This document shows positions 3,471-29,092 of a stretch of DNA of 32,000 bases, piece after piece. The DNA is taken from positions 150,001 through 182,000 of the forward strand of contig NZ_LT671858.1 of the NCBI RefSeq assembly GCF_900083515.1. Direction: 5' to 3'. Below the pieces are notes generated by a model. The model was not told where the DNA came from, searched no databases, and saw nothing but the letters and a program-made list of their open reading frames with translations. Every line of letters begins with the position of its first letter. Position 1 is the first letter of the stretch. Source of the DNA: Cuniculiplasma divulgatum. GTDB lineage: Archaea; Thermoplasmatota; Thermoplasmata; Thermoplasmatales; Thermoplasmataceae. Position numbers and translations under genes: made by a program.

Positions 3471-4474
3471 TGCGAATCACTCCTAATTCTTGGGTCCATT
3501 ATTCCATATAATATTTCTGTAATAAAGTTAGCAACTAACGAGATCAAAACTATAACAATGAAAATACCATTAACAAGTGGATAATCTAAACCTTCAATTC
3601 CTTGATAAAGGTATTCCCCCAGACCTTGATATGAAAAAATCTGTTGTATTAGTATAACTCCAGTTATAGAAACTCCTATGGATATGCCAAAGCTAGTCAT
3701 GTTTGGTAAAATGGCGTTTCTTGTAGCATTCTTTCTCATTAATTTCTTCTTTACGCCCATAAGTTCAGAAAATTTAAGGAAATCGCTATTCAGAATGGTT
3801 ACCATGTTGTTTCTCATACCAAAAACCCAACCAGACAGGGTAGTAAGTACAAGAGTTGAAACTGGTAATATAGCATGATAGGCAACACTGGATATAAATG
3901 TTAAATTTAAGCCTGGGGTTAATCCCAGTTTGTAGGCATTTAAAGCTGGAACAACATTCAAGTCAACAGCAAATATTAGCATAAGTATGACTGCAAACGC
4001 AAATGCTGGAATTCCATACATGAACATTGGGATGAGTGTTGAAAGAGAATCTTTCCATGTACCTCTGGATAATGCAGCCACTCTTCCTAGATAGTTTCCA
4101 ACATAAAATGATATGACTATTGGTACAACCACAAGAAAAATAGTCCACCAGAACGAGTCTGCTATAATTGTTGCGACAGGCTCTGGAAAATATATGATAG
4201 AGACACCAAGATTTCCGTGAAACAAGTTTGATAAGTAACTAAAGTATTGAATATATAATGGTTGATGTGATATTCCTAGTTCAAGGTCTATTGCTTTAAT
4301 CAGAGTAGGGCTCACATATGCTCCATTAGCTGAAAGTCTTGCAATCACGGCCTCGGCAGGATTACCTGGAATTAATCTTGGGAGCGCAAATCCGACAGTA
4401 ACTGTAATAAAAAACAAAACTATGAAGTAAACCACTCTATCAAAAAAAAATTTATATCTCATACTCTCACTCAT
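3467..4474 (-). CDS. ABC transporter permease (DppB/OppB-like)
   Basis: Polytopic membrane protein. The conserved N-terminal LPRLIPGNPAE motif is typical of DppB/OppB permeases, and the gene sits in the operon. Confidence 0.85.
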   Translation of the reverse strand: MSESMRYKFFFDRVVYFIVLFFITVTVGFALPRLIPGNPAEAVIARLSANGAYVSPTLIKAIDLELGISHQPLYIQYFSYLSNLFHGNLGVSIIYFPEPVATIIADSFWWTIFLVVVPIVISFYVGNYLGRVAALSRGTWKDSLSTLIPMFMYGIPAFAFAVILMLIFAVDLNVVPALNAYKLGLTPGLNLTFISSVAYHAILPVSTLVLTTLSGWVFGMRNNMVTILNSDFLKFSELMGVKKKLMRKNATRNAILPNMTSFGISIGVSITGVILIQQIFSYQGLGEYLYQGIEGLDYPLVNGIFIVIVLISLVANFITEILYGIMDPRIRSDSQ

Positions 4475-16307: not shown

Positions 16308-16480
16308 CATTCTTCCATCTTTACTATTTAATCATTCAAAATTCATATTGATTTGAAAGTAGAAGAGTTTCTCTCAAAAAGCTTTTCACCAGCTTAGAAA
16401 AACAATATGAAATAATTCCGAATTCTTTCTAATAATTACAAATCAAAGATTTTTTATTTTTGTGTAAAGTACAATAGAAA

Positions 16481-16492
16481 TGGGCCCGACCG
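16481..16492. repeat. 12-nt exact copy (tgggcccgaccg) of the 3' end of tRNA-Val at 28815-28826; candidate att remnant and island boundary
   Basis: Direct comparison of the two sites. The copy is followed by cgagccc, which equals the other acceptor-stem strand of the same tRNA (28880-28886). It lies in the 330-bp intergenic gap between the TDT transporter and the GNAT gene. Confidence 0.5.
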
Positions 16493-16638
16493 AGCCCGTT
16501 TAAACTTTTAAGCAAATCCTGTAATATTAGAGATAGGTAGAGTCCCATTTACAACTGTAAGCAAGTCTTCTTTTGTATGAGTAACATGGTGTCCATTAAA
16601 TGAACATATGAATTTGGCCCAGAAGAATTTTCTATAAA

Positions 16639-17124
16639 TTATGATTCGTATTTTTTTTCCATTATAAAATCGCTTCCATCAGTATCCTCAACCTTGAATC
16701 CGTTCTTATAATAGAACGAAAATCCCACAGAATTTTGTCTGTGAACATATAGTCTGCATTCCAGAATACCTTTTTTCTTCATAATTTTCTCTGCCTCTAA
16801 CAGTAATGTTTTTCCAATCTTCTTGTGCGTGTATTCCGGTTTAAGATATAAGCGAAGTAATTCAGCTTTATTAGCAATAATCTTCAATTCAATAAATCCA
16901 ATTAACGTCGAATCTGCAAAAGCTCCGAGGAATAATATATCAAGGTTAGATTGAGATCTTACTATTTCATTTAGCAGTTTTTCCTTAGAATATTTCTCCC
17001 TTATCCAACTCTCGATATATTCCTCACTGTATATGCCTGCGTAAGTCCATTTCCATGATTCTCTAGCAACTTCAATCAGAGTTTCTAGATCCTCAATAGA
17101 TAATTTCCTAATTTCTATGGACAT
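16639..17124 (-). CDS. GNAT-family N-acetyltransferase
   Basis: 161 aa. It has an acetyl-CoA-binding-like segment (HKKIGKTLLLEAEKIMKKKG) and a C-terminal YYKNGF motif. It overlaps the upstream MFS gene by 17 nt. Confidence 0.85.
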   Translation of the reverse strand: MSIEIRKLSIEDLETLIEVARESWKWTYAGIYSEEYIESWIREKYSKEKLLNEIVRSQSNLDILFLGAFADSTLIGFIELKIIANKAELLRLYLKPEYTHKKIGKTLLLEAEKIMKKKGILECRLYVHRQNSVGFSFYYKNGFKVEDTDGSDFIMEKKYES

Positions 17125-18313
17125 GGGTAATTGTTCGCCTCCAAATAATTATTAATATTATTGCTAGTGAAAAGGTTGAAATTAAGAAAAATGTATTATG
17201 ATAGCCAGTAAACTGCACCAAAATTCCGGTTATTGGTGCAGACAAAAATGTTAAGCCAGTAGCAAGGCTATTATAATAACCTTGAATTGTTCCCGTTATC
17301 TCTTCAGGAACATTATTTTGAATTCCGGAGAAAATTATAATTTCACTAACCCCAATAGATATCCCAATTATAAACATAGGCAGAAGAACGTATATAAATT
17401 GAGTAATGTAACTTAGTGCTATAAGCATTACCGCCAATACAGCTATTGACCAAAAGACTCTGTTCAATCTCGGAAATCCTTCCTTTCTTTCTAAAAAGGA
17501 TCCTATGGAAATCCCTAACGTAAGTATAAGATATATAACAGAGAGGTACAACGCTGGTAGTTGGAATATTCTAACCACCATTACAGTAGTCAAAACTCCA
17601 AACATACCGAATATAAAATTAACCAGAAATCCCTCTGTAAAAAGGACTAAAACTATTGGAGATTTTCTTATAAAGTTCAAAGGGTCACTTAACTTTCTAG
17701 CACCAGCCTTTAGCTGGTGTCTTTTAGGTTCTTCGTAAACTTTGATGAGAGAAATTGGGATTGTTGAGGTCAGGTAAATAAGTAATACAAATATTAATGT
17801 AAACGTTACTCCTGTTGAAATTAAAAAGCCTACTAAAATGTAACCTAATCCTTCTGAAATGTTGTATAAAATATTTGAAAAAGCCCTGTATCTTTTTACT
17901 TTCTCTCCTTCTTTTAAGAATTTCTTTATCCAGACTGCTCTAACGGAGTTAATAAAATCAGATGTCAGTCCAACCGAAAATGCGAACAAGAATAGAAAGA
18001 TAATAAGGAACGCTTTTTGGTTAAAGAGAAAAGTGAATAATAAAGGCACCACTGAACAAGCCCGAATAAGAGAAAACAGGATTGCTATAAATTTTTTATG
18101 TATACTATTATCCACAAAAGAGCCCACAGCAAAGCTCAAAAATAATGGTAACGTAACAAGTCCGTCGGCAATTCCAGTATAGACCGGGGAATGCGTGACC
18201 GTAAAAGAGACCCACAGAATGCTAATATAAAAGATGGCAGTAGCTATTCGAGATAGAGAAATACTTGAAGCAGTAAACATATAGTTTCTAATATCGCGGT
18301 TCATATTAGTCAT
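17108..18313 (-). CDS. MFS_3 / EntS-like efflux transporter (the 'transmembrane secretion effector' type)
   Basis: 401 aa with about 12 TM helices. The N-terminus (RNYMFTASSISLSRIATAIFYISILWVSFTVTHSPVYTGIADGLVTLP) resembles the EntS/MFS_3 pattern. It lies 20 nt downstream of the SagB-like pair. Confidence 0.65.
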   Translation of the reverse strand: MTNMNRDIRNYMFTASSISLSRIATAIFYISILWVSFTVTHSPVYTGIADGLVTLPLFLSFAVGSFVDNSIHKKFIAILFSLIRACSVVPLLFTFLFNQKAFLIIFLFLFAFSVGLTSDFINSVRAVWIKKFLKEGEKVKRYRAFSNILYNISEGLGYILVGFLISTGVTFTLIFVLLIYLTSTIPISLIKVYEEPKRHQLKAGARKLSDPLNFIRKSPIVLVLFTEGFLVNFIFGMFGVLTTVMVVRIFQLPALYLSVIYLILTLGISIGSFLERKEGFPRLNRVFWSIAVLAVMLIALSYITQFIYVLLPMFIIGISIGVSEIIIFSGIQNNVPEEITGTIQGYYNSLATGLTFLSAPITGILVQFTGYHNTFFLISTFSLAIILIIIWRRTITHVHRN

Positions 18314-18332
18314 AAATAATTTACATTAAATT

Positions 18333-19442
18333 TTAAATCTCATTAACCCATTGCAAGTTTAATATGTTGCTGGAGGTGTTGTCCATAAGTAAAGAAGGTG
18401 AAGGTTTTTTTCCGACCGTTATCGTATACAATACAAATTGTTTGTTCCTTTTCAAACTAAGCATCTTGTCAAATGAAGAATCTCTAGTTGCGGGTGTTGG
18501 TAACGAACCAAACCCCATTCGCTCCGCTTCAAATATCAATCTCTGAGCTATTCTTCCCGCTTCTATGAATATGTTTCTAAGTGCCCTTTCATGCCTATAT
18601 CTCCATTGGTATTGTTCAAAATCAGTAACGAAAAGGATAGTAAAATTAGCTGTTTTTGGTGCTTGATGCCACCATAAATTATGTATCATCTCCTCTCTAA
18701 AATCTCCAGACTTTAATTCGGAAAGGAAATGGTCCTTTACGTCATAAAGGTATATTCCATTTTGTAAGTGATTAATATTATAGGCAATCACGTAAAAATC
18801 AAATTCTGTTCCATGGCTTGCAAAATAATCTAAAGGGTCTTCATAACTGAGGTTTCTAACGTGCCTAACTCTTGAAAGAGCATTCCATAAAATACTAGAA
18901 AAATCCTCTAGTTTCATTGATTCATTTTGAAAAATTCTGGTCGTTCTTCTGCCTAAGAGTACATTTTTTAAGTTTACCTCTTCTAGACCTACATTTTTAG
19001 GTATTGGCATTTTAATTTTTGTAAATTCGAGGGATTCGACAATCCTATCCGGCAAACTATTTTCACTTAAATATGCATTTATCAAACCTCTTCTTAGGTC
19101 TCCTGAATAATCTTCATCGTCAATGAATTTCACCTTTTTAGACCACACATAATAAATTAATGAATCGTACCATCCTCTTTTAAACCAATGTAAGATGCTA
19201 TCCAAGTTCTCTGTTTCTGGCTCCTCGTTTGTATTAATTAAAAACCCTATTTCTCTTAAATATGAAAAAATGGTTAAATCAGAATTTCCCATTTGATTAA
19301 ATAAAAGAAATTCTATGAATGCGTCTAATTTAATTTTTATTCTCTTATAAAGTAAAGGATTTGAAATTATAAGTCTAGATGGTTCAGTAAAATTATCAAT
19401 AGTTGTCAATTCTTTCCATTTAATATTTTCAAGTGTTTTCAA
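18333..19442 (-). CDS. SagB/ThcOx-type nitroreductase-fold dehydrogenase, paralogue B, with an extra N-terminal ~150-aa domain
   Basis: LLGRRTTRIF (the RRSxR FMN-phosphate motif) and C-terminal IEAGRIAQRLIFEAERMGFGSLPTPA, typical of the nitroreductase fold. The PSxG motif is degenerate (ASHGTEF). The start is TTG at 19442, with GAGGAG 7 nt upstream. Confidence 0.75.
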   Translation of the reverse strand: MKTLENIKWKELTTIDNFTEPSRLIISNPLLYKRIKIKLDAFIEFLLFNQMGNSDLTIFSYLREIGFLINTNEEPETENLDSILHWFKRGWYDSLIYYVWSKKVKFIDDEDYSGDLRRGLINAYLSENSLPDRIVESLEFTKIKMPIPKNVGLEEVNLKNVLLGRRTTRIFQNESMKLEDFSSILWNALSRVRHVRNLSYEDPLDYFASHGTEFDFYVIAYNINHLQNGIYLYDVKDHFLSELKSGDFREEMIHNLWWHQAPKTANFTILFVTDFEQYQWRYRHERALRNIFIEAGRIAQRLIFEAERMGFGSLPTPATRDSSFDKMLSLKRNKQFVLYTITVGKKPSPSLLMDNTSSNILNLQWVNEI

Positions 19443-19455
19443 AACTTCATCTCCT

Positions 19456-20517
19456 CTAGTTTCCTATAGCCATAGATGCCATATAGCCTTCTTTCAATGG
19501 GCTTAATCCTAGAAATTTTTCTATCCCTTCATCATTAGCTGAATATTGAACTAAATACTTATATCCTAACTTTTCACATATGATTTCAGTTGTCGCCGCT
19601 AAATGTCCCACGTCCATATGTATAGTTCGGAAAGTCCTAGGTTCTCGATATCTATACATATTTCTCTCAAATATACTGGTAAATATTAAGATTAAATCAA
19701 CATGAAAATCGGGTCGCACATATGTTGTAGGAAAAAGAAGTCTTAGGTCATCTGGGTCTGTTCCACCAATTTTTATTTGTTCAAGTTTGGAATCTTTAAC
19801 AGAAATGTGGTACCACCCAGACTCCAAACCTTCCACATTTATCGCTACAATGTATGTCTCAGTAGGATGTCTGGACCCCCCGGATGGACTGGTTCTCAAT
19901 ATTAGTGGGTCTCCATTCCAATAAACTCTTAAGCTCCCAACTCTTGTATAACCAAGTGATGCCATCGTAAGCAAATCGGCAAAATTGACACATTTTTGCT
20001 TAGAGGTATTAGTTTCTCGTATTTTCACCTCTGTAGCTTTGGGGATGTCATACGAAACCTGCGAATTATATTCCTTATATCTGTTAGAATCAATTTCTTG
20101 ACTACTATAATTAATCATCCGTTGTTTTGCAACATAATCCTCGATAAAGGGATAATCATAAGACACTAGATGATAAAGTAACGCCATATACCAATTATGT
20201 TTATACCAATTATCAAACTCTAAACCAAACACTTCATTAGAACCATCCATTTCTTGTTTAACTTCCAGTAAAAGGTCAGTTGCCATAAGTTTTTTCAGTC
20301 CAAGATGAATAAGCTCATTTTTGATTCCATATTTCTCATAAAAGAAATCTAGAATATCTCCCACAGTATGTGGAATTTTGCAATATAAAAGTATTGCCAA
20401 AGTTGGAGAACTTACCTTATAATTTCTTTTAGTGACCCAATTCCTAACAATCCATAGATCCCCAACAATCCTATCTGGTGGATATATTAGAATTTCGGAA
20501 ACTGATTTAACCTTCAT
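19456..20517 (-). CDS. SagB/ThcOx-type nitroreductase-fold dehydrogenase, paralogue A, with an N-terminal PqqD/RRE-like domain
   Basis: LRTSPSGGSRHPTETYIVA (the SagB signature R..PS.G...P.E.Y) and C-terminal MDVGHLAATTEIICEKLGY...MASMAIG. The N-terminal ~90 aa (WIVRNWVTKRNYKVSSPTLAILLYCKIPHTVGDILDFFYEKYGIKNELIHLGLKKLMATDLLLEV) reads like a PqqD-type peptide-binding wHTH. Confidence 0.8.
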   Translation of the reverse strand: MKVKSVSEILIYPPDRIVGDLWIVRNWVTKRNYKVSSPTLAILLYCKIPHTVGDILDFFYEKYGIKNELIHLGLKKLMATDLLLEVKQEMDGSNEVFGLEFDNWYKHNWYMALLYHLVSYDYPFIEDYVAKQRMINYSSQEIDSNRYKEYNSQVSYDIPKATEVKIRETNTSKQKCVNFADLLTMASLGYTRVGSLRVYWNGDPLILRTSPSGGSRHPTETYIVAINVEGLESGWYHISVKDSKLEQIKIGGTDPDDLRLLFPTTYVRPDFHVDLILIFTSIFERNMYRYREPRTFRTIHMDVGHLAATTEIICEKLGYKYLVQYSANDEGIEKFLGLSPLKEGYMASMAIGN

Positions 20518-20575
20518 TAATTATAATTACTATTACAATGTAATAAGCTTATGTAGTAACAAAAACTAAATAATC

Positions 20576-20583
20576 TTTAAATA
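20576..20583 (+). promoter_or_regulatory. Archaeal TATA box (tttaaata) for the 23-codon ORF
   Basis: It matches the TTTAWATA consensus. It lies about 35 nt upstream of the ATG at 20617, so a transcript start would fall just before the GGAGGTGA at 20605-20612. Confidence 0.45.
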
Positions 20584-20616
20584 AGATTATTCAAATTGAA
20601 ATTTGGAGGTGAAAAA

Positions 20617-20688
20617 ATGACTGATGCGGATTTTGTGGTTGAGGAAGTAAGTTTGGACATGCCAGCCGCCAAGCAAAATGGGGGATAA
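20617..20688 (+). CDS. Unannotated small ORF, 23 aa (MTDAEFVVEEVSLDMPAAKQNGG); candidate precursor peptide
   Basis: My own translation. GGAGGTGA (a full anti-SD complement) sits at 20605-20612, 4 nt before the ATG. The stop is TAA immediately followed by an out-of-frame TGA (taatga). Three oligo-T runs follow within 45 nt. The ORF is divergent from the SagB-like operon, 100 nt away. Confidence 0.55.
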   Translation: MTDADFVVEEVSLDMPAAKQNGG

Positions 20689-20703
20689 TGAAACAATAAT
20701 CAC

Positions 20704-20730
20704 TATTTTTTATACTTTTTTATTTTTTTG
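20704..20730 (+). terminator. Oligo-T archaeal terminator-like tract (T6, T6, T7)
   Basis: The sequence tattttttatacttttttattttttt lies directly downstream of the 23-codon ORF. Confidence 0.5.
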
Positions 20731-20852
20731 AAAATCAAGAAATGGAGTAAGTAAACATTTTTTAAGATATGATTTTTCCGAGTCGGACTATCATACTTGT
20801 GTCAGTAATGGGGTTTTATTTTCTCATAAAAATAGGGACCAAACCACCCTTA

Positions 20853-20883
20853 TTCTTGTTCAAACTTCTTTTGAAGAAGTTTG
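20853..20883. repeat. Palindromic motif copy 0 (ttcttgt-t-caaacttctt-ttg-aagaagtttg)
   Basis: 10-bp perfect inverted arms with a 3-nt spacer, preceded by ttcttgt. The architecture is the same as at 21324 and 21361. Confidence 0.7.
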
Positions 20884-21032
20884 TCGCAAAGGAAAGCCCG
20901 TATTATTAAATCTGAAATTTTAAGGGCTTTCCTGCGAACCCCCTCCTCCGCCGAGCGTAGCAGGTCTGAACGAAGTGAAGACCCGAAGTGTCCCGAAGGG
21001 ACACGTAGCCCACACGTGCATAGCACGGGTGG

Positions 21033-21050
21033 GTGCGAAGCACAGGGCAC
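21033..21050. repeat. Left arm of the 18-bp perfect long-range inverted repeat (gtgcgaagcacagggcac)
   Basis: Its reverse complement, gtgccctgtgcttcgcac, occurs at 21279-21296. Confidence 0.85.
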
Positions 21051-21278
21051 GGGGGGTCGGTGGACAGCCCGAAGGGCTGGACAAATCAGGATAATAGGCT
21101 GTTGCGAAGCAACAAGTGAACGCCGAAGGCGTACACGTGCCTATACCTGATTAGACCTCCGAGACGAGCGAAGGCAAAAAGAGGGGGGGAATTTGTGAGC
21201 GAAGCGAACAAAGGAGGGGTGAATTTTTGCCGTAGCGAAAGCCAAATCCTCCGTTCAGGAGGTTGGCGTGTCGCAGAG

Positions 21279-21296
21279 TGCCCTGTGCTTCGCACT
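21279..21296. repeat. Right arm of the 18-bp perfect long-range inverted repeat
   Basis: Exact reverse complement of 21033-21050. The arms are 228 nt apart. Confidence 0.85.
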
Positions 21297-21323
21297 TGTG
21301 CGTAGCGAGGCGGGGGCTTATTG

Positions 21324-21350
21324 CTCTTGTGGACTTCTCACGAGAAGTCC
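21324..21350. repeat. Palindromic motif copy 1 (ctcttgt-ggacttctc-acg-gagaagtcc)
   Basis: 9-bp perfect inverted arms with a 3-nt spacer, preceded by ctcttgt. Confidence 0.75.
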
Positions 21351-21360
21351 GTAATTATAG

Positions 21361-21387
21361 TTCTTGTAGACTTCTTTCAAGAAGTCT
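21361..21387. repeat. Palindromic motif copy 2 (ttcttgt-agacttctt-tca-aagaagtct)
   Basis: 9-bp perfect inverted arms with a 3-nt spacer, preceded by ttcttgt. It lies 37 bp from copy 1. Confidence 0.75.
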
Positions 21388-21461
21388 GAAATAAAAAGTA
21401 AAAGGAAATAAGGAGGGCATTAAGCGCCCCGTGTATTGACACACGGGGGCACGTGTGGCTC

Positions 21462-21641
21462 TCACGTGCTAAGCTTACGTGGTCGTTTAGCTGGTCTTTT
21501 ACTAACGTAATGTCTGTTGGATACTCTGCTGGCTGATAGTGTGAGCCATTTCCTGCACTTCGGACAATACCAATTCTCCGTTTCCTCTAACTGACATAAT
21601 GGCGTTCCGCAAAACATACACTTTATTCTGTATTCCTTCAT
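21462..21641 (-). CDS. Small zinc-ribbon protein, 59 aa (below the ORF-track cutoff)
   Basis: My own translation: MKEYRIKCMFCGTPLCQLEETENWYCPKCRKWLTLSASRVSNRHYVSKRPAKRPRKLST. It has a CxxC...CxxC arrangement plus a basic tail, and an ATGA overlap with the upstream gene's stop. Confidence 0.55.
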   Translation of the reverse strand: MKEYRIKCMFCGTPLCQLEETENWYCPKCRKWLTLSASRVSNRHYVSKRPAKRPRKLST

Positions 21642-21856
21642 TTCATTGCCTCCTTCCGCATTGCTTCATATTGCTCTGTCTTGGCCTTTAACTGCCGTTC
21701 TAACTGCTCTATTTTCGTGTGTGGGTCTACATATCCTTTATTCTCCTTATATTGCGATATGAGAAAATTCAGGACACGTGATAACTCCTTGTGCTTTGTG
21801 AGTTCCTCCACGAATTCCACGTTTTCTGGCTCTATATGAAATGTAGTTATGTGCAT
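21638..21856 (-). CDS. Small protein, possibly ribbon-helix-helix plus coiled coil
   Basis: The ORF track gives 21638..21859 with a GTG start; the ATG at 21856 overlaps the upstream stop (TGATG). The N-terminus ITTFHIEPENVEFVEELTK...SRVLNFLISQY has a beta-alpha-alpha pattern. Confidence 0.5.
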   Translation of the reverse strand: MHITTFHIEPENVEFVEELTKHKELSRVLNFLISQYKENKGYVDPHTKIEQLERQLKAKTEQYEAMRKEAMK

Positions 21857-22194
21857 CACTTACTCACCTCTGCCTTGTGCAATATGATTGCCTTGTAGTA
21901 GCTGTTCCCTGATTTCCTGCTAATGAGTTTATCCAATACGAAAAAGGTATCAGGTTTTAGATAGCCTAAATCGTATTGCTCGTTCAATACTGATGAGCCA
22001 TAGAAAGATACAATCTGTCCGTCAGAAGTCCGTTTTGCGTAATAGATATATAGCTCTGCCTCCTGACCTTCCCTTTCTATTTTCGTTTTTTCTACACTTG
22101 AGAGTTGTAGCTCCTCTCCTATGAGAACGTCCTTTTCCACTTGTAGCATACCTTCGGTATGCTTTTGTTCGTCTGTGTTTTCTTGTTCAGCCAT
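21856..22194 (-). CDS. Hypothetical protein, 112 aa
   Basis: ORF in the co-directional chain, coupled to the downstream gene. No motif recognised. Confidence 0.5.
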   Translation of the reverse strand: MAEQENTDEQKHTEGMLQVEKDVLIGEELQLSSVEKTKIEREGQEAELYIYYAKRTSDGQIVSFYGSSVLNEQYDLGYLKPDTFFVLDKLISRKSGNSYYKAIILHKAEVSK

Positions 22195-22453
22195 TCAATC
22201 ACAATAATATTGGGTAGAAAAGATATAATAAGGTATCTGCAATGAATATTGAAGCAAAGTAAAAGATAGTCATATTACTTGGAATATAGCTGAAAAGAAA
22301 TGCACAATGTAAGATATGGATATATATTTATATCTTGATGTTCATATATTATATACGGGCATATTCTCGGTTATATAACTTGGAATAATTAAAAGGGAAT
22401 GGTGAGCAAAATATAAAAGCACCACGAAAACAATAGATTTTTTGTTGTTGTTT

Positions 22454-22618
22454 CTATCCGTTCGTCTGTGCTGGTTTCTCTGTTCGCAATATAGCGTTTA
22501 GACGCTTTTTTTGCTGTTCTTCCTCCTCACACATAGGGCAACACTCCTTGAGCCTTGAGCCGATAAGGAATAGATGGCCTCTTTGGTGTATGTGTATTAG
22601 AGGGTATATTTCTTGCAT
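22454..22618 (-). CDS. Small Cys/His-rich protein, 54 aa (below the ORF-track cutoff)
   Basis: My own translation: MQEIYPLIHIHQRGHLFLIGSRLKECCPMCEEEEQQKKRLNAILRTEKPAQTNG. GGTGG lies 5 nt upstream of the ATG. Confidence 0.4.
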   Translation of the reverse strand: MQEIYPLIHIHQRGHLFLIGSRLKECCPMCEEEEQQKKRLNAILRTEKPAQTNG

Positions 22619-22705
22619 TTTGCCACCATAAATATAACGAAAAATAGGATATAAACTTTATCGGGGAAACGTGGCGGTGGCAAAGCCACGCTCCCTAAGA
22701 AATCG

Positions 22706-22834
22706 TTATTTTCGCAACAACGAGCTTAAAAAGAGGGTGGTGTGCATACATTCTACGCATAGCCCTGAATTATTGACCGCTGTTATCCCTGCTTCCTCGT
22801 CATCTATCCTGACCTTGCATATTCTACACTTCAT
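22706..22834 (-). CDS. Small zinc-ribbon protein, 42 aa (below the ORF-track cutoff)
   Basis: My own translation: MKCRICKVRIDDEEAGITAVNNSGLCVECMHTTLFLSSLLRK (CxxC-19-CxxC). The ATG lies 1 nt after the upstream stop. The same 11-nt junction, atgaaatgaag, precedes the other zinc-ribbon ORF at 21636-21646. Confidence 0.5.
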   Translation of the reverse strand: MKCRICKVRIDDEEAGITAVNNSGLCVECMHTTLFLSSLLRK

Positions 22835-22835
22835 T

Positions 22836-23192
22836 TCATCGCCTTAACAAATGTCCTAAGCGTTCCTTATCGTATTCTTGCATTTCCTCTTTGCTGGCTC
22901 TTTCCAATACGACAACGTCCTCTTTTCCGTATTTTGCGTATGAGAACTTAATGTATTGTGCCTCTGCACAACTGCCGTCCCGATATACAGGATAATATAT
23001 GCCTATTCCCTCCCTCTCGCCATAGCGTATCTCGGAAAATACAGAAGGAGTAAAAAGCTCCTTTTCAATCGTAATCACTGACCCTGCTCCAAAAGATAAC
23101 AAAGTGTGTAATTCATTTTCCGTCCGCCATTTCATCGTTTTTATGTCGTTTTTTCTCTCCTTCCCATTTCTTTCAGCTTCCATTTTTCTCAC
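22836..23192 (-). CDS. Hypothetical protein, 118 aa
   Basis: ORF in the co-directional chain. No motif recognised. Confidence 0.5.
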   Translation of the reverse strand: MRKMEAERNGKERKNDIKTMKWRTENELHTLLSFGAGSVITIEKELFTPSVFSEIRYGEREGIGIYYPVYRDGSCAEAQYIKFSYAKYGKEDVVVLERASKEEMQEYDKERLGHLLRR

Positions 23193-23340
23193 CTATAAAG
23201 TGTGAAATCCTTGCGTGATACCTTCCTTTTTTGTGTTCCTTAACGTGCAAGACTACGTGCTTTCTCCTTCCCTCCTCGAACCATTCTATTGTTATGAGAA
23301 AACTAATCAGTTTTCCCTTCGGTGCATTGGGTATTTTCAT
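23173..23340 (-). CDS. Hypothetical small basic protein, 55 aa (below the ORF-track cutoff)
   Basis: My own translation: MKIPNAPKGKLISFLITIEWFEEGRRKHVVLHVKEHKKGRYHARISHFIGEKNGS. It overlaps the start of the 118-aa ORF by 20 nt. Confidence 0.35.
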   Translation of the reverse strand: MKIPNAPKGKLISFLITIEWFEEGRRKHVVLHVKEHKKGRYHARISHFIGEKNGS

Positions 23341-23373
23341 ACTCTCACTTATTATATTTGAAAAGATAGATAT

Positions 23374-23643
23374 TTATAGATTTACCTCCATTTCCTCTGT
23401 CTTAAGAACTACAATAATTCTGATGAAATATGAGCATACAGCTATTGCAATGAAAGACCAAAGAAAAGTAATTCCAATTAATTCAATCCACATTCCTGTA
23501 ATAGACGCTGGGCTATTCGTTGTAGCGTCCTGCACGGATACACGAACAATAATCATTAGGAAAGCCAGAAAATATGTAAAGAAAACTGCAAAAATAGAGA
23601 TAATAAGCTTAAGCCACGCAATCTCTTTTTTTTCTGATTTCAA
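23374..23643 (-). CDS. Small membrane protein (2-3 TM helices)
   Basis: Two or three strongly hydrophobic segments. The TTG start overlaps the upstream stop (TTGA). Confidence 0.45.
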   Translation of the reverse strand: MKSEKKEIAWLKLIISIFAVFFTYFLAFLMIIVRVSVQDATTNSPASITGMWIELIGITFLWSFIAIAVCSYFIRIIVVLKTEEMEVNL

Positions 23644-23927
23644 AAGATGGCAATTTCCTCGCCTCCCTCGTCAATACGGATTTTCGGTTTCCTAAATAGA
23701 CGATATTCTATCTCTACCCTACTTCCTGATTTCCTGCCTATTACTGCACTATTGGGGTGTTCATATTTGATTTGTGCCAATTCCTGTCTGAATTCACGAT
23801 ACATATTTTGTTGCATTGCCATAACCGATAATACAGGATTGTGTCCGTATTCTGCGTTCCTTGCCCTCTTTTTTAGCTCTCGTAATTCATTCACATTAAC
23901 GGCTTCCATTTCCATTATCTCGCTCAT
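23640..23927 (-). CDS. Hypothetical protein, 95 aa
   Basis: ORF in the chain, with an ATGA overlap with the upstream small ORF. Confidence 0.5.
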   Translation of the reverse strand: MSEIMEMEAVNVNELRELKKRARNAEYGHNPVLSVMAMQQNMYREFRQELAQIKYEHPNSAVIGRKSGSRVEIEYRLFRKPKIRIDEGGEEIAIF

Positions 23928-24097
23928 TCTTTATCACCTCCTTTCCGAGTCTCTTTCCCCTGCTTATTTACCGCTTTCTCAATTTCACGATATACTATGT
24001 CGTCTATTTGCTCTCCCAGCATATTAATGCGGTTAGCTTCCCGCTCCTCGCAAAGTATCTCTCTTATTTTTATCTTTGTTTTGTAATCTAAATTCAT
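23924..24097 (-). CDS. Hypothetical small protein, 57 aa (below the ORF-track cutoff)
   Basis: My own translation: MNLDYKTKIKIREILCEEREANRINMLGEQIDDIVYREIEKAVNKQGKETRKGGDKE. GGAGGAGG lies 7 nt upstream, and there are ATGA overlaps at both ends. Confidence 0.5.
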   Translation of the reverse strand: MNLDYKTKIKIREILCEEREANRINMLGEQIDDIVYREIEKAVNKQGKETRKGGDKE

Positions 24098-24234
24098 TTT
24101 TTAACCTCCTCCTCGTCTTCTTCCTTATAGCCTGCCGTCCACTTTACAAAATCATCTAATGCGTCTGTCCTCTTCTTATTATCTTTCTGCATCTTCTTTA
24201 TCTGACGGTTCAAGAACCAATCTCTTATGCTCAT
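24094..24234 (-). CDS. Hypothetical small charged protein, 46 aa (below the ORF-track cutoff)
   Basis: My own translation: MSIRDWFLNRQIKKMQKDNKKRTDALDDFVKWTAGYKEEDEEEVKK. There are ATGA overlaps at both ends. Confidence 0.45.
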   Translation of the reverse strand: MSIRDWFLNRQIKKMQKDNKKRTDALDDFVKWTAGYKEEDEEEVKK

Positions 24235-24935
24235 TCATTATCACCTCCTTGCGTGAGCTTCGCTCTTTCTTCGGGGGTCGTCCCGCTCTTTGCTTTCAGC
24301 TTCTCTAACTCAGTCTGATATTCTCGAATTTTCTCATTAGCCAATTTCCTTCCCTCCTCTGTTGTTGCTTGAGCATACTTCTGTTGCCATAAATTCAGTA
24401 ATCGTGCCAATTCCTCTTTAGTGTGTATCATTACAGGCTCTCTTTCTGCCGTTTCGTTGCCTGGCTCTTCTTCTTTTGATTTAAATTTTTTCTCGTATTT
24501 TTTCCTCGCTCTATCCTCTGGTGAAGTCCAATATGTTCTTGTAAGCAAAGCGTGGATTGGTGGATATAAGTCAAAATACCAAACCACGTCAATAATTAAT
24601 AAACTAATACTCATAGAACTTTGCAATATCGGGTTTTCCAGAGATACCCACGAAAAAGAATAAAGCCCTGTAAAAGAAAAAGCGTAGACCATCGCTACAA
24701 TACCTAAAACTTCCAAAAAAATCATAATTACAAACCAGATAATAATGTCAATAAAAGCGATGGCAAAAGAAAAAATGAGTGGGTAAAAGAGCCAATTCGG
24801 AACGAATGTGTATTGTGGTAATGTGTTCCACGGAACTTGTTGGAAAAAGATAGGAAAGTTAAAAAATATGAACAATAAGGATAGAATGATAAGCCTATGT
24901 TTATAGTTAAAATTCTGCTTCCCCACGATATTCAT
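24231..24935 (-). CDS. Membrane protein (about 4 TM helices) with a C-terminal charged coiled-coil tail
   Basis: Hydrophobic N-terminal 140 aa and a Lys/Glu-rich helical C-terminus. There is an ATGA overlap with the ATPase gene. Confidence 0.6.
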   Translation of the reverse strand: MNIVGKQNFNYKHRLIILSLLFIFFNFPIFFQQVPWNTLPQYTFVPNWLFYPLIFSFAIAFIDIIIWFVIMIFLEVLGIVAMVYAFSFTGLYSFSWVSLENPILQSSMSISLLIIDVVWYFDLYPPIHALLTRTYWTSPEDRARKKYEKKFKSKEEEPGNETAEREPVMIHTKEELARLLNLWQQKYAQATTEEGRKLANEKIREYQTELEKLKAKSGTTPEERAKLTQGGDNE

Positions 24936-26791
24936 AGCTTTTCCTCCTGTAATTCGGGCAAAGTAAGCACTTTTACGTCTGGGTATTTCTCAACATACTT
25001 CTTTTTCTCACTCTGGTTTGGGACGATGATAATTGTTTCCTTGCCCTGTTTCTGATAATAGGCTATCCTGTCCTTGATGTCCGAGATATCGTTTTTAAGC
25101 CCTGTTTCAATCTCAAAAACATATTTATCGCTTTCAATATCTGCCGTGCTAATACCCGATGGTTGTATTTTCGGATTAATTCCCTTATGATAAATCACGT
25201 CCGCCGTTCGATTCACAAGATAAGTATGAAGCCCAGATGGATTTTCTCCGTTTCGGAAATAGATTTTTGTGTCTTTGATGTCAGGTTTATCATTTACAAA
25301 TTTTACGTTATTAACTTCCTTCACGTCTATTTTCTCTAATTTTAAAAGCATCGGCAATGTCTTACGATATAAAGTTAAACGATAATTCTCTCCCTCCCCA
25401 CCATATCTCTCGGCAAAACGCTTTCCCAAATCCTGTATATTTCCTGCCTGTGATAGAAATTCAAAGATAACTTTTTGATAGTCTATATCCTCCTTCCTCT
25501 CTTCCTCGGAACTCCCTTTGCCTTTGCTGTCATTATTGTTTATTGTAATCTCCTTCACGGAATATAACTTCGGTTTTGGGTTCTGCAATCTATATATTAT
25601 CACATATTGGTCGGGTCTATCCTGCCCGATGTCCGTAAACTCGTAAGTAGAGAGCATTTGAGCTACAACTTGGTGGAATAAATCACTAATGGCACTTACC
25701 TCGTCTAAATTCTCCTTGCCAGATTGTTTGAAGCTGAATTGTGTTTTACAGTTATCTAATGCCTGTCCTCGCAAATCCGCTATTCTTTGAGAAGCTAGTA
25801 TCATACTACCTTTTGCACCAATGAGAGCGGACATCTCTGGTATTATAGAAAACCCTGATTTTGTCAATAAATGAGCCTCGTCTATTACGAATAAAGTATT
25901 TTGCCTCTTGTTCCATACCTCTTTAGAGAGTTGATTAAGCAAGAACTCTGCATAGAATTTGAAAAATTGCATATCTACCTCGGTGTTCTCTGAACCCTCA
26001 AAATCAACTACACAAGTATTGGGTAATTCATAATTCAAAACATTTTCCCGATATATGATTGGCAAATTGTTCTGTATGAACTTTAATGCTCCTTTGGTAA
26101 TGCTTTCACTTTCGGATTTTAGCATATCCTCCAATATCTTTTTGAAATCTTGCCAATTTTTGCTCTTTTCCGCTATCTGCTTTACCTGACCTCTGACTGT
26201 TGAAGCGGTTATGCCCTGCATACTCGCGCTGATTGGAAATGCCGTTATAAACGCCCTTGCCACTGCCTCTGGACTTATAAAAACATTAGGAACTGCTTTG
26301 TGGATATAGAGTGTAGGATAGCCTAACCTTGTGTAATCATCTGTTGCCTTAAACATAAAAATTATTTTCTTTTCTTCTGATAAGGATTGGATTAATTTAT
26401 AGACCAATTGACTTTTACCTGAACGGGAAGCCCCCATAACTGCTATAATGCGATTATGTCCCTTTCTTTCGAGATATTCGTTTATGTCCATTTTCCCTTC
26501 ATATATTGTTTCTCTGTCCTTCTGCCAGCCCCTCCCGCTCTCGTCCTCGTGCCACGTTAGTTTTACATCTGCAATAGCTAAAATCTCATTCTGTATTTTT
26601 TGCGGGCTCACAAACTGCGCTCTCCATAGAATACTCAAAACAATACAAAAAATAATCCAACTCGTTATTACTGCCCCTACCAAAGACACGGGTATTAGAA
26701 GTATAGCCACGAGTAAAGCGAATAAGCCTGCCACACTCACAACTGCGACACGTCCGTGTTTACGTCTGGGGCGGCTAAATGCTTCCATCAT
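24932..26791 (-). CDS. Membrane-anchored FtsK/HerA/TraG-like P-loop ATPase with C-terminal wHTH-like and nuclease-like regions
   Basis: Two N-terminal TM helices (VAVVSVAGLFALLVAILLIPVSLVGAVITSWIIFCIVLSILW). Walker A is GASRSGKS, which I verified at nt 26411-26434 on the reverse strand. Walker B is LFVIDEAHLL. The C-terminal ADIESDKYVFEIETGLK looks like a PD-(D/E)xK motif. GGAGGTGA lies upstream of the ATG. Confidence 0.7.
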   Translation of the reverse strand: MMEAFSRPRRKHGRVAVVSVAGLFALLVAILLIPVSLVGAVITSWIIFCIVLSILWRAQFVSPQKIQNEILAIADVKLTWHEDESGRGWQKDRETIYEGKMDINEYLERKGHNRIIAVMGASRSGKSQLVYKLIQSLSEEKKIIFMFKATDDYTRLGYPTLYIHKAVPNVFISPEAVARAFITAFPISASMQGITASTVRGQVKQIAEKSKNWQDFKKILEDMLKSESESITKGALKFIQNNLPIIYRENVLNYELPNTCVVDFEGSENTEVDMQFFKFYAEFLLNQLSKEVWNKRQNTLFVIDEAHLLTKSGFSIIPEMSALIGAKGSMILASQRIADLRGQALDNCKTQFSFKQSGKENLDEVSAISDLFHQVVAQMLSTYEFTDIGQDRPDQYVIIYRLQNPKPKLYSVKEITINNNDSKGKGSSEEERKEDIDYQKVIFEFLSQAGNIQDLGKRFAERYGGEGENYRLTLYRKTLPMLLKLEKIDVKEVNNVKFVNDKPDIKDTKIYFRNGENPSGLHTYLVNRTADVIYHKGINPKIQPSGISTADIESDKYVFEIETGLKNDISDIKDRIAYYQKQGKETIIIVPNQSEKKKYVEKYPDVKVLTLPELQEEKL

Positions 26792-26793
26792 AA

Positions 26794-27006
26794 TTATATT
26801 TCACCTCCAATATTATTATGGGTTTCTCTATCCAGCAAATCCATCAAAATAGCGGTTGCACCGACAAGCTCCTCTCCTGAAACCACGTCTGGCAGAGATA
26901 AGAGAATTGGTAGGATGGGGGAATTTGGGAATTTCTTAGCAAAGCTATGTTTAAGGTGTTTTATTGATGTTTTTTTAACCAAAATCAAATCAACGTGTTC
27001 GACCAT
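26794..27006 (-). CDS. Hypothetical protein, 70 aa; first gene of the leftward operon
   Basis: The ORF ends 2 nt before the ATPase start and contains that gene's SD. No motif recognised. Confidence 0.4.
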   Translation of the reverse strand: MVEHVDLILVKKTSIKHLKHSFAKKFPNSPILPILLSLPDVVSGEELVGATAILMDLLDRETHNNIGGEI

Positions 27007-27040
27007 ACTTATCTATTTGTAATTCAATGAGAGAATATAT

Positions 27041-27484
27041 ATGGTTAATACCATTACTATACCTATGAGCATATATTTATCGTGGGTAGAATACTATTCA
27101 TGTGCTTACTGCGAGGAAATCATCAATACTATGCTATCTGCTGATAAGACAATGAGTCAATATAAGATTACTAAACTTGTAAAAAGTAAAATGAACTCAA
27201 AGACCGCAATAAAACATATTGAGGATTTAATTGACGTGGGGATTATAATTGATTATGGTGGTCCTGCTCTTCGGCTTTTGGAAGATATAAAATCAGTATT
27301 TTTAGAAACATCTTATGAACCATACGGGAAACCTGCTCGGAAAGGCATATTAGATTTTTCAAATGAAAACGATGTTGAATTATTGTCAGAAATTATAAAA
27401 GCTCAACACAAGAAACGAAAAAAAAGCTATGCTTTATGGTTTGATTACGCATTCTTATATGAAAAGTGTATGAAAAAGGACTAA
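27041..27484 (+). CDS. Putative winged-helix DNA-binding protein, 147 aa
   Basis: The segment MSQYKITKLVKSKMNSKTAIKHIEDLIDVGIIIDYG is HTH-like. The gene is divergent from the leftward operon, with a 34-bp gap, and is the only plus-strand gene in the element. Confidence 0.4.
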   Translation: MVNTITIPMSIYLSWVEYYSCAYCEEIINTMLSADKTMSQYKITKLVKSKMNSKTAIKHIEDLIDVGIIIDYGGPALRLLEDIKSVFLETSYEPYGKPARKGILDFSNENDVELLSEIIKAQHKKRKKSYALWFDYAFLYEKCMKKD

Positions 27485-28764
27485 AACCTCAACCTCATTA
27501 CCGCTTTTCCGTTCGGCAATACTGCTTCAAAGTCGTATCCATCGCTGATATATTGCTCTATTTCGTTTACAGGTATGACCTTCTGCTTCGCTCCGTTGTC
27601 GCTCATCGCACCTGCTACCTTGTCCCTTAACAACTGCTGAAAGTCCTCATTGCTCACGCTTGAAAGGTCTAACTTGTCTATCTCCTCCTGCTTGTAGCCC
27701 ACTGCCGATAAGAGCTGTTGCTGTAAGAATAGCTTTGCGTTGTCCTCTGAAACATCGGATATTCTCGTTTCAAGGAATTTTAAACACTTACGATAACTTT
27801 CCCTCATCTCCTCTATCATATCTGGCGGTAGCCTCTTATTTGTGCTGTATCTTGCCTCTATATCGCCCTTATGACCCATAATAAACTGCCTCCACGGGTG
27901 CGATATTAGACCTTTGCTCTCTGCGATGTCTAACGCCGTGCTGAAATATGCCCTTAAAACGTAAGGTCTCATCTTTAGACCTGCTGTGGTTATTGCCTCC
28001 CTGATATCCCTCGTTACCAACATAGTCCGCATAAAATCATTCTTCTTTGTGCCTCTTACATCAAATTGCAACAGTGGGGATTCATAAGTTAGCTCCTCTC
28101 CGTTCTTTTTTCTCTCCTCCAAATATTCCTTGATATACGTTATACCCTCCTCTCCAATGAAAGAAAAGTATTGGTTTCTTGCCTTGCTTAGCCTTGTCTT
28201 TACCATTATTGTGGCTGGAATCTTGGTGAATTCGATTTCATCTGAAATCTTAAGCTCTTTAATATCGCCTAATCGTAATCCATCTGTGCCCTCGTAATTA
28301 CCCAATGTTTCGGGTCTAAAGCCTGAAAATGCCATAATAGAGATTGATACCCTGCCTCTTGATGTCGCTTTTCTTAAAAGCCTGCTCAATTCTTCCTTGC
28401 TTGGCACTCTTTCGTTGTCTAACGTTGGACTTTCGTTTTCATTTGCTATATTTACATCTAACTTTATATCGATTCCATTAAATTTAGCCCAAGACCGTAA
28501 AACCTTTTTATATCTTACAATATATGACCCTGCTTTCCCCTCTTTCTCTAATCTTCTAACAAAATCCAAGAAATTATCTCTAAACTCTAACTTTTCCATA
28601 TCGGTTAGAAGTTGTTCAGGCGTAGTTTTCTCCAATTCACAATAGTAGCCTAAAGTCCTTCGGTAAACGGTTGCTGTAAGTATTGATTTAGCCTTTAGAT
28701 TCTCAAACCATCTTCTTATTTTCGGGTTTTCCATTAGGTTGTCATACTTCGGTTTATAGGTCAT
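27481..28764 (-). CDS. Tyrosine recombinase / integrase
   Basis: Catalytic-motif candidates are R in AFSGFRPETL, HPWR (HxxR), GHKGD and Y in EARYS. The gene is intact and starts 51 nt from the tRNA 3' end. Confidence 0.85.
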   Translation of the reverse strand: MTYKPKYDNLMENPKIRRWFENLKAKSILTATVYRRTLGYYCELEKTTPEQLLTDMEKLEFRDNFLDFVRRLEKEGKAGSYIVRYKKVLRSWAKFNGIDIKLDVNIANENESPTLDNERVPSKEELSRLLRKATSRGRVSISIMAFSGFRPETLGNYEGTDGLRLGDIKELKISDEIEFTKIPATIMVKTRLSKARNQYFSFIGEEGITYIKEYLEERKKNGEELTYESPLLQFDVRGTKKNDFMRTMLVTRDIREAITTAGLKMRPYVLRAYFSTALDIAESKGLISHPWRQFIMGHKGDIEARYSTNKRLPPDMIEEMRESYRKCLKFLETRISDVSEDNAKLFLQQQLLSAVGYKQEEIDKLDLSSVSNEDFQQLLRDKVAGAMSDNGAKQKVIPVNEIEQYISDGYDFEAVLPNGKAVMRLRF

Positions 28765-28812
28765 ACATCATATAGTCTAAAATCATAAATAAAGTATTCG
28801 TTTAATACTTAA

Positions 28813-28886
<74 letters not shown>

Positions 28887-29092
28887 TCGTCTGTGGATGT
28901 GATTATAGATAATTAGTTTTTTTATCAATGTCACTAATTTGATGAATTGAGTAAGGATAAGTCCCTCAACATTTATTTTGGTCAGATTCACCATAAGATT
29001 TCCTGTTATAGCATTAATGTAATTGAGAAACAACCTTATTGTTTGTATATATCTTTCATCTACAATTTTATATTGAATTGATATGTGCATTA

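Follow-up and report, generated by a model that had tools for sequence, protein, structure and literature searches.

The closest described relative of the sequence treated here lies on pPO1, a plasmid of Picrophilus oshimae. Angelov, Voss and Liebl (2011) reported that its intergenic region IG2 deviates in G+C content, received no Tn5 insertions, and may form DNA secondary structure; they considered the origin likely to lie in the opposite, AT-rich region IG1 beside cdc6, detected no single-stranded intermediates, and proposed no function, homologues or structure for IG2 (PMC3177234). We describe the structure, the homologues and the covariation of this element, noticed in 2011 yet never analysed, with a copy from Cuniculiplasma divulgatum as reference. 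That copy is the structured core of a GC-rich island at 20884-21461 of a 32,000-nt stretch of NZ_LT671858.1, called the window below; positions are those of the window unless another locus is named, and L-numbers designate the loci compared (L001 is pPO1). The core stands out by its covariation, by its spread over genera of Thermoplasmatales, and by an unusual build from GAA triloops. To our knowledge there is no genetic system for the Thermoplasmatales, and hardly any work has addressed their plasmids and integrated elements.

The island is the sole GC-rich one of the window, with a GC fraction of 0.53 at 21001-21500 against 0.29-0.46 in the remaining 500-nt bins, and it had been singled out as conspicuously GC-rich in an earlier inspection of the letters (the sequence-only reading). 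The motif counts given there are reproduced exactly: nine copies of CGAAG, at 20971, 20984, 20994, 21036, 21070, 21105, 21124, 21169, and 21200, and one of CTTCG, at 21288. The five GAA-triloop hairpins listed with them are all present, with perfect stems. Dinucleotide-preserving shuffles of the 578-nt region contain CGAAG 1.24 times on average, rather more than the "well under one" that had been expected, and the enrichment is nevertheless real because none of 2000 shuffles reaches nine. Perfect triloop hairpins number seven, which 11 of 2000 shuffles also reach, so that this count alone is only moderately unusual. Both strands fold far better than such controls whether treated as RNA (z of -12.3 for the plus strand and -11.4 for the minus strand) or as single-stranded DNA (z of -11.0 and -10.9 for the two strands with DNA parameters). 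The heptamer GCGNAGC occurs six times in the core, and ten times in the whole 32-kb window where 2.6 are expected.

A blastn search with the island found a single match in a plasmid collection, to pPO1, and none in a phage collection. The match falls in the 554-bp IG2, where the homologue occupies pPO1 3769-4076 on the minus strand. At about 308 nt, the pPO1 copy is shorter than that of the window, misses several hairpins, and has an extra miniature G-rich module. IG2 is nonetheless a true homologue: the blocks follow the same order, namely TCGCAAAG, a hairpin, CTGCGAACCCC..CCGAGCG, then AAAGAGGGG..GGGGTGAATTT, then CGTTCAG, then GCGAGGCGGG; the helices are the same by way of compensatory changes; and pPO1 ORF1 alongside is a homologue of the membrane-anchored FtsK/HerA-like ATPase of the window (30% identity, E = 2e-53). 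That ATPase serves as the marker of the element family. It has 48 homologues, and the contigs examined next were those encoding homologues of 41-73% identity. In every contig that reaches the site, the core occupies an unannotated gap of about 1 kb, 3-4 kb past the ATPase gene and on the opposite strand, and its conserved blocks appear in identical order. The block therefore travels with the integrase/ATPase module, as the sequence-only reading had proposed to check, in every relative whose DNA extends far enough.

Copies come from Cuniculiplasma/G-plasma, E-plasma, I-plasma, pPO1, and acid-mine and other metagenomes. Pattern scans added about 19 metagenome contigs. A similar scan of a genome collection gave 14 loci, of which those of E-plasma and I-plasma are real and the other 12 were rejected by R1, a covariance model of 21165-21317, the 3' third of the core. 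Model R1 recovers 37 copies with E-values from 1e-40 to 4e-19, each true locus yielding one and the chance loci none; its score is 182.8 bits for the copy of the window and 126.4 bits for that of pPO1. Three pattern scans of IMG/VR returned zero matches or chance matches in GC-rich or unrelated phage DNA, so that this viral collection does not contain the elements. Across the family, the core DNA is 64-99% identical and the ATPase proteins 30-91%, falling to 30-45%, and between element subtypes blastn sees essentially the core alone plus a few short matches of 73-87% identity. Judged by such alignments, the core is the most conserved segment of pPO1-family elements.

A single chromosome may carry up to three different copies. 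C. divulgatum PM4 (LT719092.1) has three different elements (L005, L011, L015) with one core each, their ATPases being 100%, 73%, and 45% identical to that of the window; the L015 core, together with the 3' flank, hardly differs from that of the window although the ATPase has diverged, which implies modular recombination. Metagenome contigs often start or stop within the core or no more than about 250 nt from it (L018, L019, L044, L046, L049, L053, L060), so that the shared sequence seems to break the assemblies of co-existing elements. No circular contig defining a minimal replicon was found, and there were no terminal overlaps. An acid mine drainage (AMD) metatranscriptome preprint (10.1101/538918) does not mention the element.

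Twenty-four distinct copies among the 37 collected form alignment A4, on which the consensus structure is based. In the fold of the plus strand, branched hairpin domains are combined with an 18-bp long-range helix and a closing helix (Table 1), all of them kept by compensatory substitutions, as expected of a structured RNA. The consensus has 119 pairs; 98.4% of alignment cells form standard pairs, and in 34 of the 119 both partners have changed. Covariation scores 0.139 in the alignment, against 0.057 in shuffles (0 of 500 reach the observed value) and 0.017-0.028 when the partners are slid. Four pairs change on both sides in helix 1 (GGAAAG/CUUUCC, GCCGUG/CACGGC, GACCUG/CAGGUC), six of 15 in the long-range helix (helix 7), and twelve in helices 8-13, while the closing helices, with their symmetric GA/GA and GTA/GTA internal loops, have compensatory changes at two pairs (L020). 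The long-range helix, which encloses a 227-nt domain, has another sequence in the same place in pPO1 (GUGAGCAGACGACAC / GUGUCGUCUGCUCAC), and its sequences differ among the window, pPO1 and L020 with pairing intact in all three. Whole parts may also be altered: the central branched domain is shorter in pPO1 and L020, and in some elements (L013 type) the 5' hairpins have been exchanged wholesale for different ones. The G-rich module holds the most conserved unpaired sequence of the core, and GGGGTGAATTT is invariant among the copies retrieved by way of the ATPase. Its inner hairpin, TTTGT-GA-GC-GAA-GC-GA-ACAAA, covaries in the stem (UUUGU/ACAAA, UUUCU/AGAAA, GCCC/GGGC, GGCU/AGUC). A scan of all column pairs supported no pseudoknot or tertiary pairs, the candidates being only invariant (ACCCC with GGGGU) or built on G-U pairs, and no periodic repeat was found inside the core.

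The strand that folds is the plus strand of the window, antisense to the ATPase operon, because both the energies and the mismatch counts favour it. The consensus energy is -135 kcal/mol on the plus strand and -112 on the minus strand; the plus strand folds better by 15-26 kcal/mol in nine of nine copies tested; and G-U cells under the plus-strand structure number 43, against five A-C cells. Hairpin loops vary within narrow bounds. The middle base of the triloop changes, as the mini-hairpin motif d(GCGAAGC) permits, giving GAA, GTA and GGA (also GATA), with the flanking G and A kept; a change of the loop G to A (AAA) is tolerated at several loops, in three to four copies. Some sites matching GCGNAGC or the octamer GCGNNAGC lie where the consensus fold has internal loops or helix strands.

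Three related units of about 35 nt, of the form TTCTTGT..ACTTCT-N-AGAAGT, flank the core, one upstream and two downstream in the same type and orientation. The pattern CTTCT-N2-6-AGAAG occurs three times in 32 kb, where 0.26 are expected, and all three occurrences are here. About 45 nt 5' of TCGCAAAG are kept in 17 of 20 distinct upstream flanks; farther upstream lies unrelated cargo. Outer stems of the downstream units covary between elements (GGAC/GTCC, AGAC/GTCT, GCC/GGC, GCCC/GGGC), and these units are missing from the flanks of one metagenome subtype (L039, L046, L049, L053, L055). Two tandem 37-nt units and one distant copy do not make a CRISPR array or a set of tandem iterons. The extent first assigned to the island, 20884-21461, is thus to be redrawn: the conserved unit runs from 20852 to 21391, and the remainder, 21392-21461, is the terminator-like tail of the converging operon, its function as a terminator being suggested by its hairpin and T-rich run.

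The region does not have the properties of a protein-coding gene. Open reading frames (ORFs) of 43-89 amino acids (aa) can be drawn on both strands, none of them with a Pfam match, and the earlier verdict that no ORF is credible stands. Three-base periodicity is absent (variable columns number 80, 75 and 83 by codon phase), and 134 of the 143 indels that separate the 24 homologues have lengths not divisible by three. The other copies in the alignment do not conserve a 36-aa ORF that follows the Shine-Dalgarno-like GAGGGGGGG, and a lookup of the 89-aa pseudo-ORF for transcript-derived contigs found nothing on record. Nor does the region match a known RNA. Searches of Rfam 15 returned only tRNA-Val for the whole window at the gathering threshold, three chance hits (E > 1) for 20300-22000 at a permissive E-value, and one tRNA for seven homologous loci, in agreement with the earlier failure to recognise any RNA family. 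We accordingly give next to no probability to the explanation that the island is a protein-coding gene, whether decayed or unrecognised, or a piece of ribosomal RNA (rRNA) or another known RNA, the drawable ORFs being all that speaks for it.

We favour, with a probability of about 0.55, the reading that the island is the gene or transcribed core of an undescribed structured non-coding RNA of about 430-470 nt, belonging to the pPO1-family plasmids of Thermoplasmatales. Its size, multi-branched architecture, long-range helices, and some conserved G-U pairs argue for RNA, as does a GC-rich (purine-rich) island in an AT-rich genome, the classic signature of an RNA gene; so too does the failure to find a Rep, relaxase or primase, together with the pPO1 data against single-stranded intermediates. 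Several observations weigh against it. The conserved G-U pairs lie mostly at helix ends, the fold is equally good with DNA parameters, C-GAA-G triloops make up six of the nine hairpin loops, and GCGNAGC/GCGNNAGC, its middle base free to vary, is present about seven times. Structured RNAs normally prefer GNRA or UNCG tetraloops, and GCGNAGC, exceptionally stable as DNA, is far less stable as RNA (PMC13037366). Furthermore, the upstream unit is rearranged or lost in three of 20 distinct flanks (L018, L043, L047), and on the plus strand no oligo-T run 3' of the core makes a convincing terminator. A strand-specific covarying fold, moreover, is explained by RNA and by single-stranded DNA alike. The core might then be an initiation signal that works as single-stranded DNA, in the manner of ssi, sso, the complementary-strand origin of phage G4, or Frpo of the F plasmid, an alternative that we regard as possible, though not probable. 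Under this explanation the plus strand, when single-stranded during transfer or strand displacement, would fold into nuclease-resistant and single-strand-binding-protein-resistant GCGNAGC mini-hairpins on a scaffold; a primase or RNA polymerase would recognise the fold and begin the complementary strand, a hybrid version being a single-strand promoter. The core would thus be a machine of 430 nt carrying an array of d(GCGNAGC), a priming or entry signal for single-strand replication or transfer of Thermoplasmatales plasmids by a pathway that has no recognisable Rep or relaxase, and perhaps the FtsK-like ATPase would take part. In its favour, C-GNA-G triloops close six of nine hairpins and GCGNAGC/GCGNNAGC recurs also outside the consensus hairpins. 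The same motifs occur in the complementary-strand origins of G4, St-1 and alpha3, in RSF1010 ssiA (CCGAAGG) and in the hairpin promoters of N4, and what the sequence-only reading says of d(GCGAAGC) mini-hairpins and single-strand priming sites holds true (Hirao review, PMC13037366). The fold is strand-specific and stable with DNA parameters, as in ssi and sso elements; a gene adjoining the core may encode a single-strand-binding OB-fold protein, although the modelled likeness is weak; a membrane ATPase like FtsK, HerA or TraB could move DNA; and no Tn5 insertions were recovered in pPO1 IG2 (PMC3177234). On the other hand, scans against Pfam, PHROGs and NCBIfam of backbone proteins from the window element, L017, L013, L020 and pPO1 found no HUH Rep, relaxase or primase, a lack of detectable homology that is not proof of absence. 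We know of no single-stranded transfer system in these archaea. The pPO1 authors saw no single-stranded intermediates, a negative given as data not shown (PMC3177234). A multi-branched structure of about 430 nt with long-range helices of 15-18 bp is also bigger and more elaborate than known ssi and sso elements, and the toleration of AAA in several loops, in three to four copies, does not favour a signal of this kind. The dual proposal made from the letters alone, an origin of single-strand type or a structured RNA, is strongly supported in what both halves share, a conserved single-strand fold that belongs to the mobile element; for the origin half, no Rep, relaxase or primase was found.

Two further explanations place the function in duplex DNA or at the end of a transcript. 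The core could be a double-stranded cis-acting site for partition, for packaging or transfer (like Streptomyces clt for TraB), or for theta replication, at which proteins of the element bind the palindromic units and GCGNAGC while the single-strand fold is incidental. Three related palindromic units found solely around the core, adjoining genes for small proteins that look DNA-binding and stand in either orientation, and an FtsK/TraB-like ATPase in every element would suit such a site, but compensatory changes between strands 227-350 nt apart and the strand asymmetry are left unexplained, and proteins down to 30-45% identity against a site at 64-99% would be unusual for a co-evolving site and binder. 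The theta variant further meets a GC-rich sequence with no AT-rich unwinding region: GC amounts to 53%, orc1/cdc6 is missing from the window element, inspection by eye showed no ORB-like repeats, and in pPO1 it is the separate AT-rich IG1 next to cdc6, not IG2, that fits the description of an Orc1/Cdc6 origin. We hold a duplex site to be unlikely. Still more improbable is that the island, as a long and structured 3' untranslated region or as an insulator or bidirectional terminator separating the cargo from the backbone operon, would do no more than halt transcription and stabilise mRNA. The location between converging or neighbouring transcription units and the stable flanking hairpins invite that explanation; but a hairpin with a T-rich terminator, at 21392-21448, already closes the operon ahead of the core, the favoured strand runs antisense to that operon, the core sequence is retained in subtypes whose neighbouring genes are inverted, and 430 nt with some 120 conserved pairs and invariant unpaired motifs far exceed what a terminator needs.

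If the core is an RNA gene, transcription would start from a promoter within the conserved 45-nt upstream unit, with the palindrome as operator. Some 30 nt 5' of TCGCAAAG there is a TATA-like stretch (TTGATTAAAC, TTGTTCAAAC, or TTTTATATCC in L019), which together with the palindrome would fit, if only weakly, an archaeal promoter with its operator. The core and the ATPase operon always lie on opposite strands, the core where backbone and cargo meet, and the core would be insulated from the converging operon by the operon's own T-rich terminator. The RNA would serve the element itself. Interactions would probably take place at its invariant G-rich module (AGAGGGGGGGAA ... GGAGGGGUGAA), and the adjoining small nucleic-acid-binding proteins (OB-like, zinc ribbon) are its likely partners. 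We propose that it would act in the replication, copy control or transfer of an element lacking any recognisable replication protein, either as a pre-primer or control RNA by analogy with ColE1 RNA II or as the scaffold of an RNA-protein complex; both mechanisms are tentative, each taking a lesser share of the probability given to the RNA as a whole.

Table 1. Features of the core, of its flanks, and of the surrounding integrative element (window positions).
Feature	Position	Strand	Sequence or basis
Structured core	20884-21315, ~432 nt	+	Fold z -12.3, 24-copy alignment, covariation
Upstream unit	20852-20885	+	TTCTTGTTCAAAC, then palindrome CAAACTTCTT-TTG-AAGAAGTTTG (20861-20883), inverted repeat I16
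Helix 1	20884-20937	+	TCGCAAAGGAAAGCCC ... GGGCTTTCCTGCGA, big AU-rich loop
Closing helices (2, 3), 5' strand	20946-20962	+	CTCCGCC-GA-GC-GTA-GCA, partner 21299-21315
Three 5' hairpins (helices 4-6)	20963-21034	+	GGTC..ACGAAGT..GACC; GTGTCCC-GAA-GGGACAC; GCCCACACGTGC-ATA-GCACGGGTGGGT
Long-range 18-bp helix, 5' strand	21033-21050	+	GTGCGAAGCACAGGGCAC, partner 21278-21295, perfect inverted repeat I1
Central branched domain (helices 8-13)	21053-21160	+	CAGCCC-GAA-GGGCTG, TGTTGC-GAA-GCAACA, ACGCC-GAA-GGCGT
G-rich module (helix 14)	21173-21231	+	Stem GGCAAAAA/TTTTTGCC around AGAGGGGGGGAA, inner hairpin, GGAGGGGTGAA
Helices 17-18	21235-21274	+	GCGA..GCCAAATCCTCC-GTTCA-GGAGGTTGGC..TCGC, with GCGAAAGC
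3' strands	21278-21315	+	Long-range helix 21278-21295; closing helices 21299-21315 (TGC-GTA-GC-GA-GGCGGGG)
Two tandem 37-nt downstream units	21318-21391	+	TTCTTGT-(G/A)GACTTCT-N4-AGAAGTC, direct repeat family D1
Terminator-like tail of converging operon	21392-21461	-	Hairpin CCCCGTGT-ATTGAC-ACACGGGG (21427-21448), then CCTTATTTCCTTTTACTTTTTATTT on the - strand
Integrative element	16481-28826, 12.35 kb		Inserted in tRNA-Val
att repeats, 12 nt, tRNA 3' end	16481-16492 (+) and 28815-28826		TGGGCCCGACCG, element ends
tRNA-Val(GAC), integration target	28814-28886	-	Rfam tRNA match
Tyrosine integrase	27481-28764	-	Phage_integrase, XerA-like matches
Membrane-anchored FtsK/HerA-like ATPase, family marker	24932-26791	-	Weak AAA, HerA Pfam matches
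112-aa protein, possible OB fold	21856-22194	-	
Helical protein, 73 aa	21638-21859	-	
Zinc-ribbon protein, basic tail, 59 aa	21462-21641	-	
Cargo	16639-20688	.	Directly upstream of core
GNAT gene	16639-17124		
MFS transporter	17108-18313		
Two SagB-family dehydrogenase-like genes	18333-19442, 19456-20517		
23-aa ORF	20617-20688	+	MTDADFVVEEVSLDMPAAKQNGG

Comparison by megablast with the same element in other genomes gives 98.9-99.9% identity from 16476-16480 to 28886-28888, with unrelated flanks on either side; the element occurs with differing flanks in LT719092, CP133595, CP133600 and others, and an identical ATPase is on record under the name Thermoplasma acidophilum. Inward from the tRNA, the gene order is integrase, ATPase, many small minus-strand genes, the island, and the cargo. 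The placement of the island at the integrase-distal end in the sequence-only reading was wrong: because the element continues to 16481, the island is internal, between a conserved backbone and variable cargo. A comparison of the ATPase with PDB sequences gave nothing informative. In the CP133595 copy an IS110-family transposase (L006 12248-13453) is inserted just past the ATPase gene, and the alignment breaks at about 24564-24570.

The three small genes next to the core (families F4, F2, F3) accompany it in most loci, in either orientation, and are absent from pPO1. An AlphaFold model of the 112-aa protein bears a weak likeness to OB folds, and the label is weak because it comes from one of five models with a TM of about 0.4. 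For the 73-aa protein a ribbon-helix-helix fold was not confirmed, its sub-threshold Pfam hits including none of that type and its fold giving no meaningful match. The small-gene module is inverted relative to the core in some subtypes (window 21462-22194; L017 12589-13188; L013 11536-12206); an active invertible segment beside the core is ruled out, the inverted modules being too diverged in DNA.

The cargo of the window element may be a peptide-maturation cluster, and from its gene content could make an archaeal antimicrobial of the type of ribosomally synthesized and post-translationally modified peptides (RiPPs) on a mobile element. Elsewhere the same position holds restriction-modification, cation efflux or radical SAM genes. 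On the plus strand, 3' of the 23-aa ORF and ahead of the core, a T-rich run TATTTTTTATACTTTTTTATTTTTTTG at 20700-20730 is probably the terminator of the cargo transcript.

Two observations concern sequences resembling the G-rich module. In pPO1 the miniature module lies just downstream of the core (L001 3683-3766, minus strand) and reads GCACGAA-GAGGGGGUAGGGGGUGAA-UUCGUGC; model R1 matches it weakly (18.3 bits, E = 0.09), and it hints that the paired G-tracts are a functional surface, possibly through a G-quadruplex or a resemblance to a Shine-Dalgarno sequence. In L017, near 12829 on the minus strand, AAAGAGGGGTGAA of the window module (21181-21222) recurs at the end of a 124-aa gene, where it would sit as the ribosome-binding site of the next gene. 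The usual 3' end of archaeal 16S rRNA is UCACCUC, to which GGGGUGA is complementary with one G-U pair.

Whichever of the two single-strand explanations applies, the core is probably essential for the maintenance or movement of these elements, so that shuttle vectors ought to retain it. No other feature is as well conserved in this mobile-element family, which includes pPO1, the sole plasmid proposed as a vector backbone for Picrophilus, and the core offers a ready DNA marker for such elements in metagenomes. As an RNA, it would join the very few structured RNAs known from mobile elements of archaea, as a large, well-supported family with unusual loops, and would be the first large structured RNA class that is specific to such elements and built from GAA triloops. 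As a DNA signal, it would point to a route of replication or transfer undescribed in Archaea; a single-stranded-DNA machine of this kind would be the first such signal in that domain and the largest known.

Single-strand initiation signals, among them the complementary-strand origins of G4, St-1 and alpha3, RSF1010 ssiA and ssiB, sso of rolling-circle plasmids and Frpo of the F plasmid, are roughly 40-330 nt long. Like the core, they are strand-specific folds on mobile DNA with GCGNAGC, GCGNNAGC or CCGAAGG mini-hairpins (PMC13037366), but their replicons have proven single-stranded stages and genes for Rep, relaxase or primase, none of which was found in the elements scanned here, and the fold of the core is larger and multi-branched. 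The RNA II/RNA I system of ColE1 provides an analogy of another sort. There a long structured transcript is the most conserved part of a plasmid family without a replication initiator of its own; in the core, the high conservation, the G-rich runs that could favour a persistent RNA-DNA hybrid, and the lack of a detected Rep gene are reminiscent of it, although there is no homology in sequence or structure and no archaeal precedent, so that the likeness is one of analogy only. With hgc RNAs the core shares the logic of its detection. Klein, Misulovin and Eddy in 2002 reportedly recognised these non-coding RNAs as GC-rich islands in AT-rich (hyper)thermophiles, and the core likewise, structured and free of ORFs, stands out by its GC content from an archaeal genome that is AT-rich; the hgc RNAs, however, are chromosomal genes, and their families have no Rfam match to the core. 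The large RNAs GOLLD, ROOL, HEARO/omega RNA and phi29 pRNA differ from it in that there is no Rfam match, the host is archaeal, the C-GAA-G triloops are unlike theirs, and no TnpB, IscB or IS110 partner belongs to the element of the core. Phi29 pRNA works with a packaging ATPase. What the core has in common with this group is that all are large, covariation-rich non-coding sequences carried by phages or mobile elements, several of them of unknown function.

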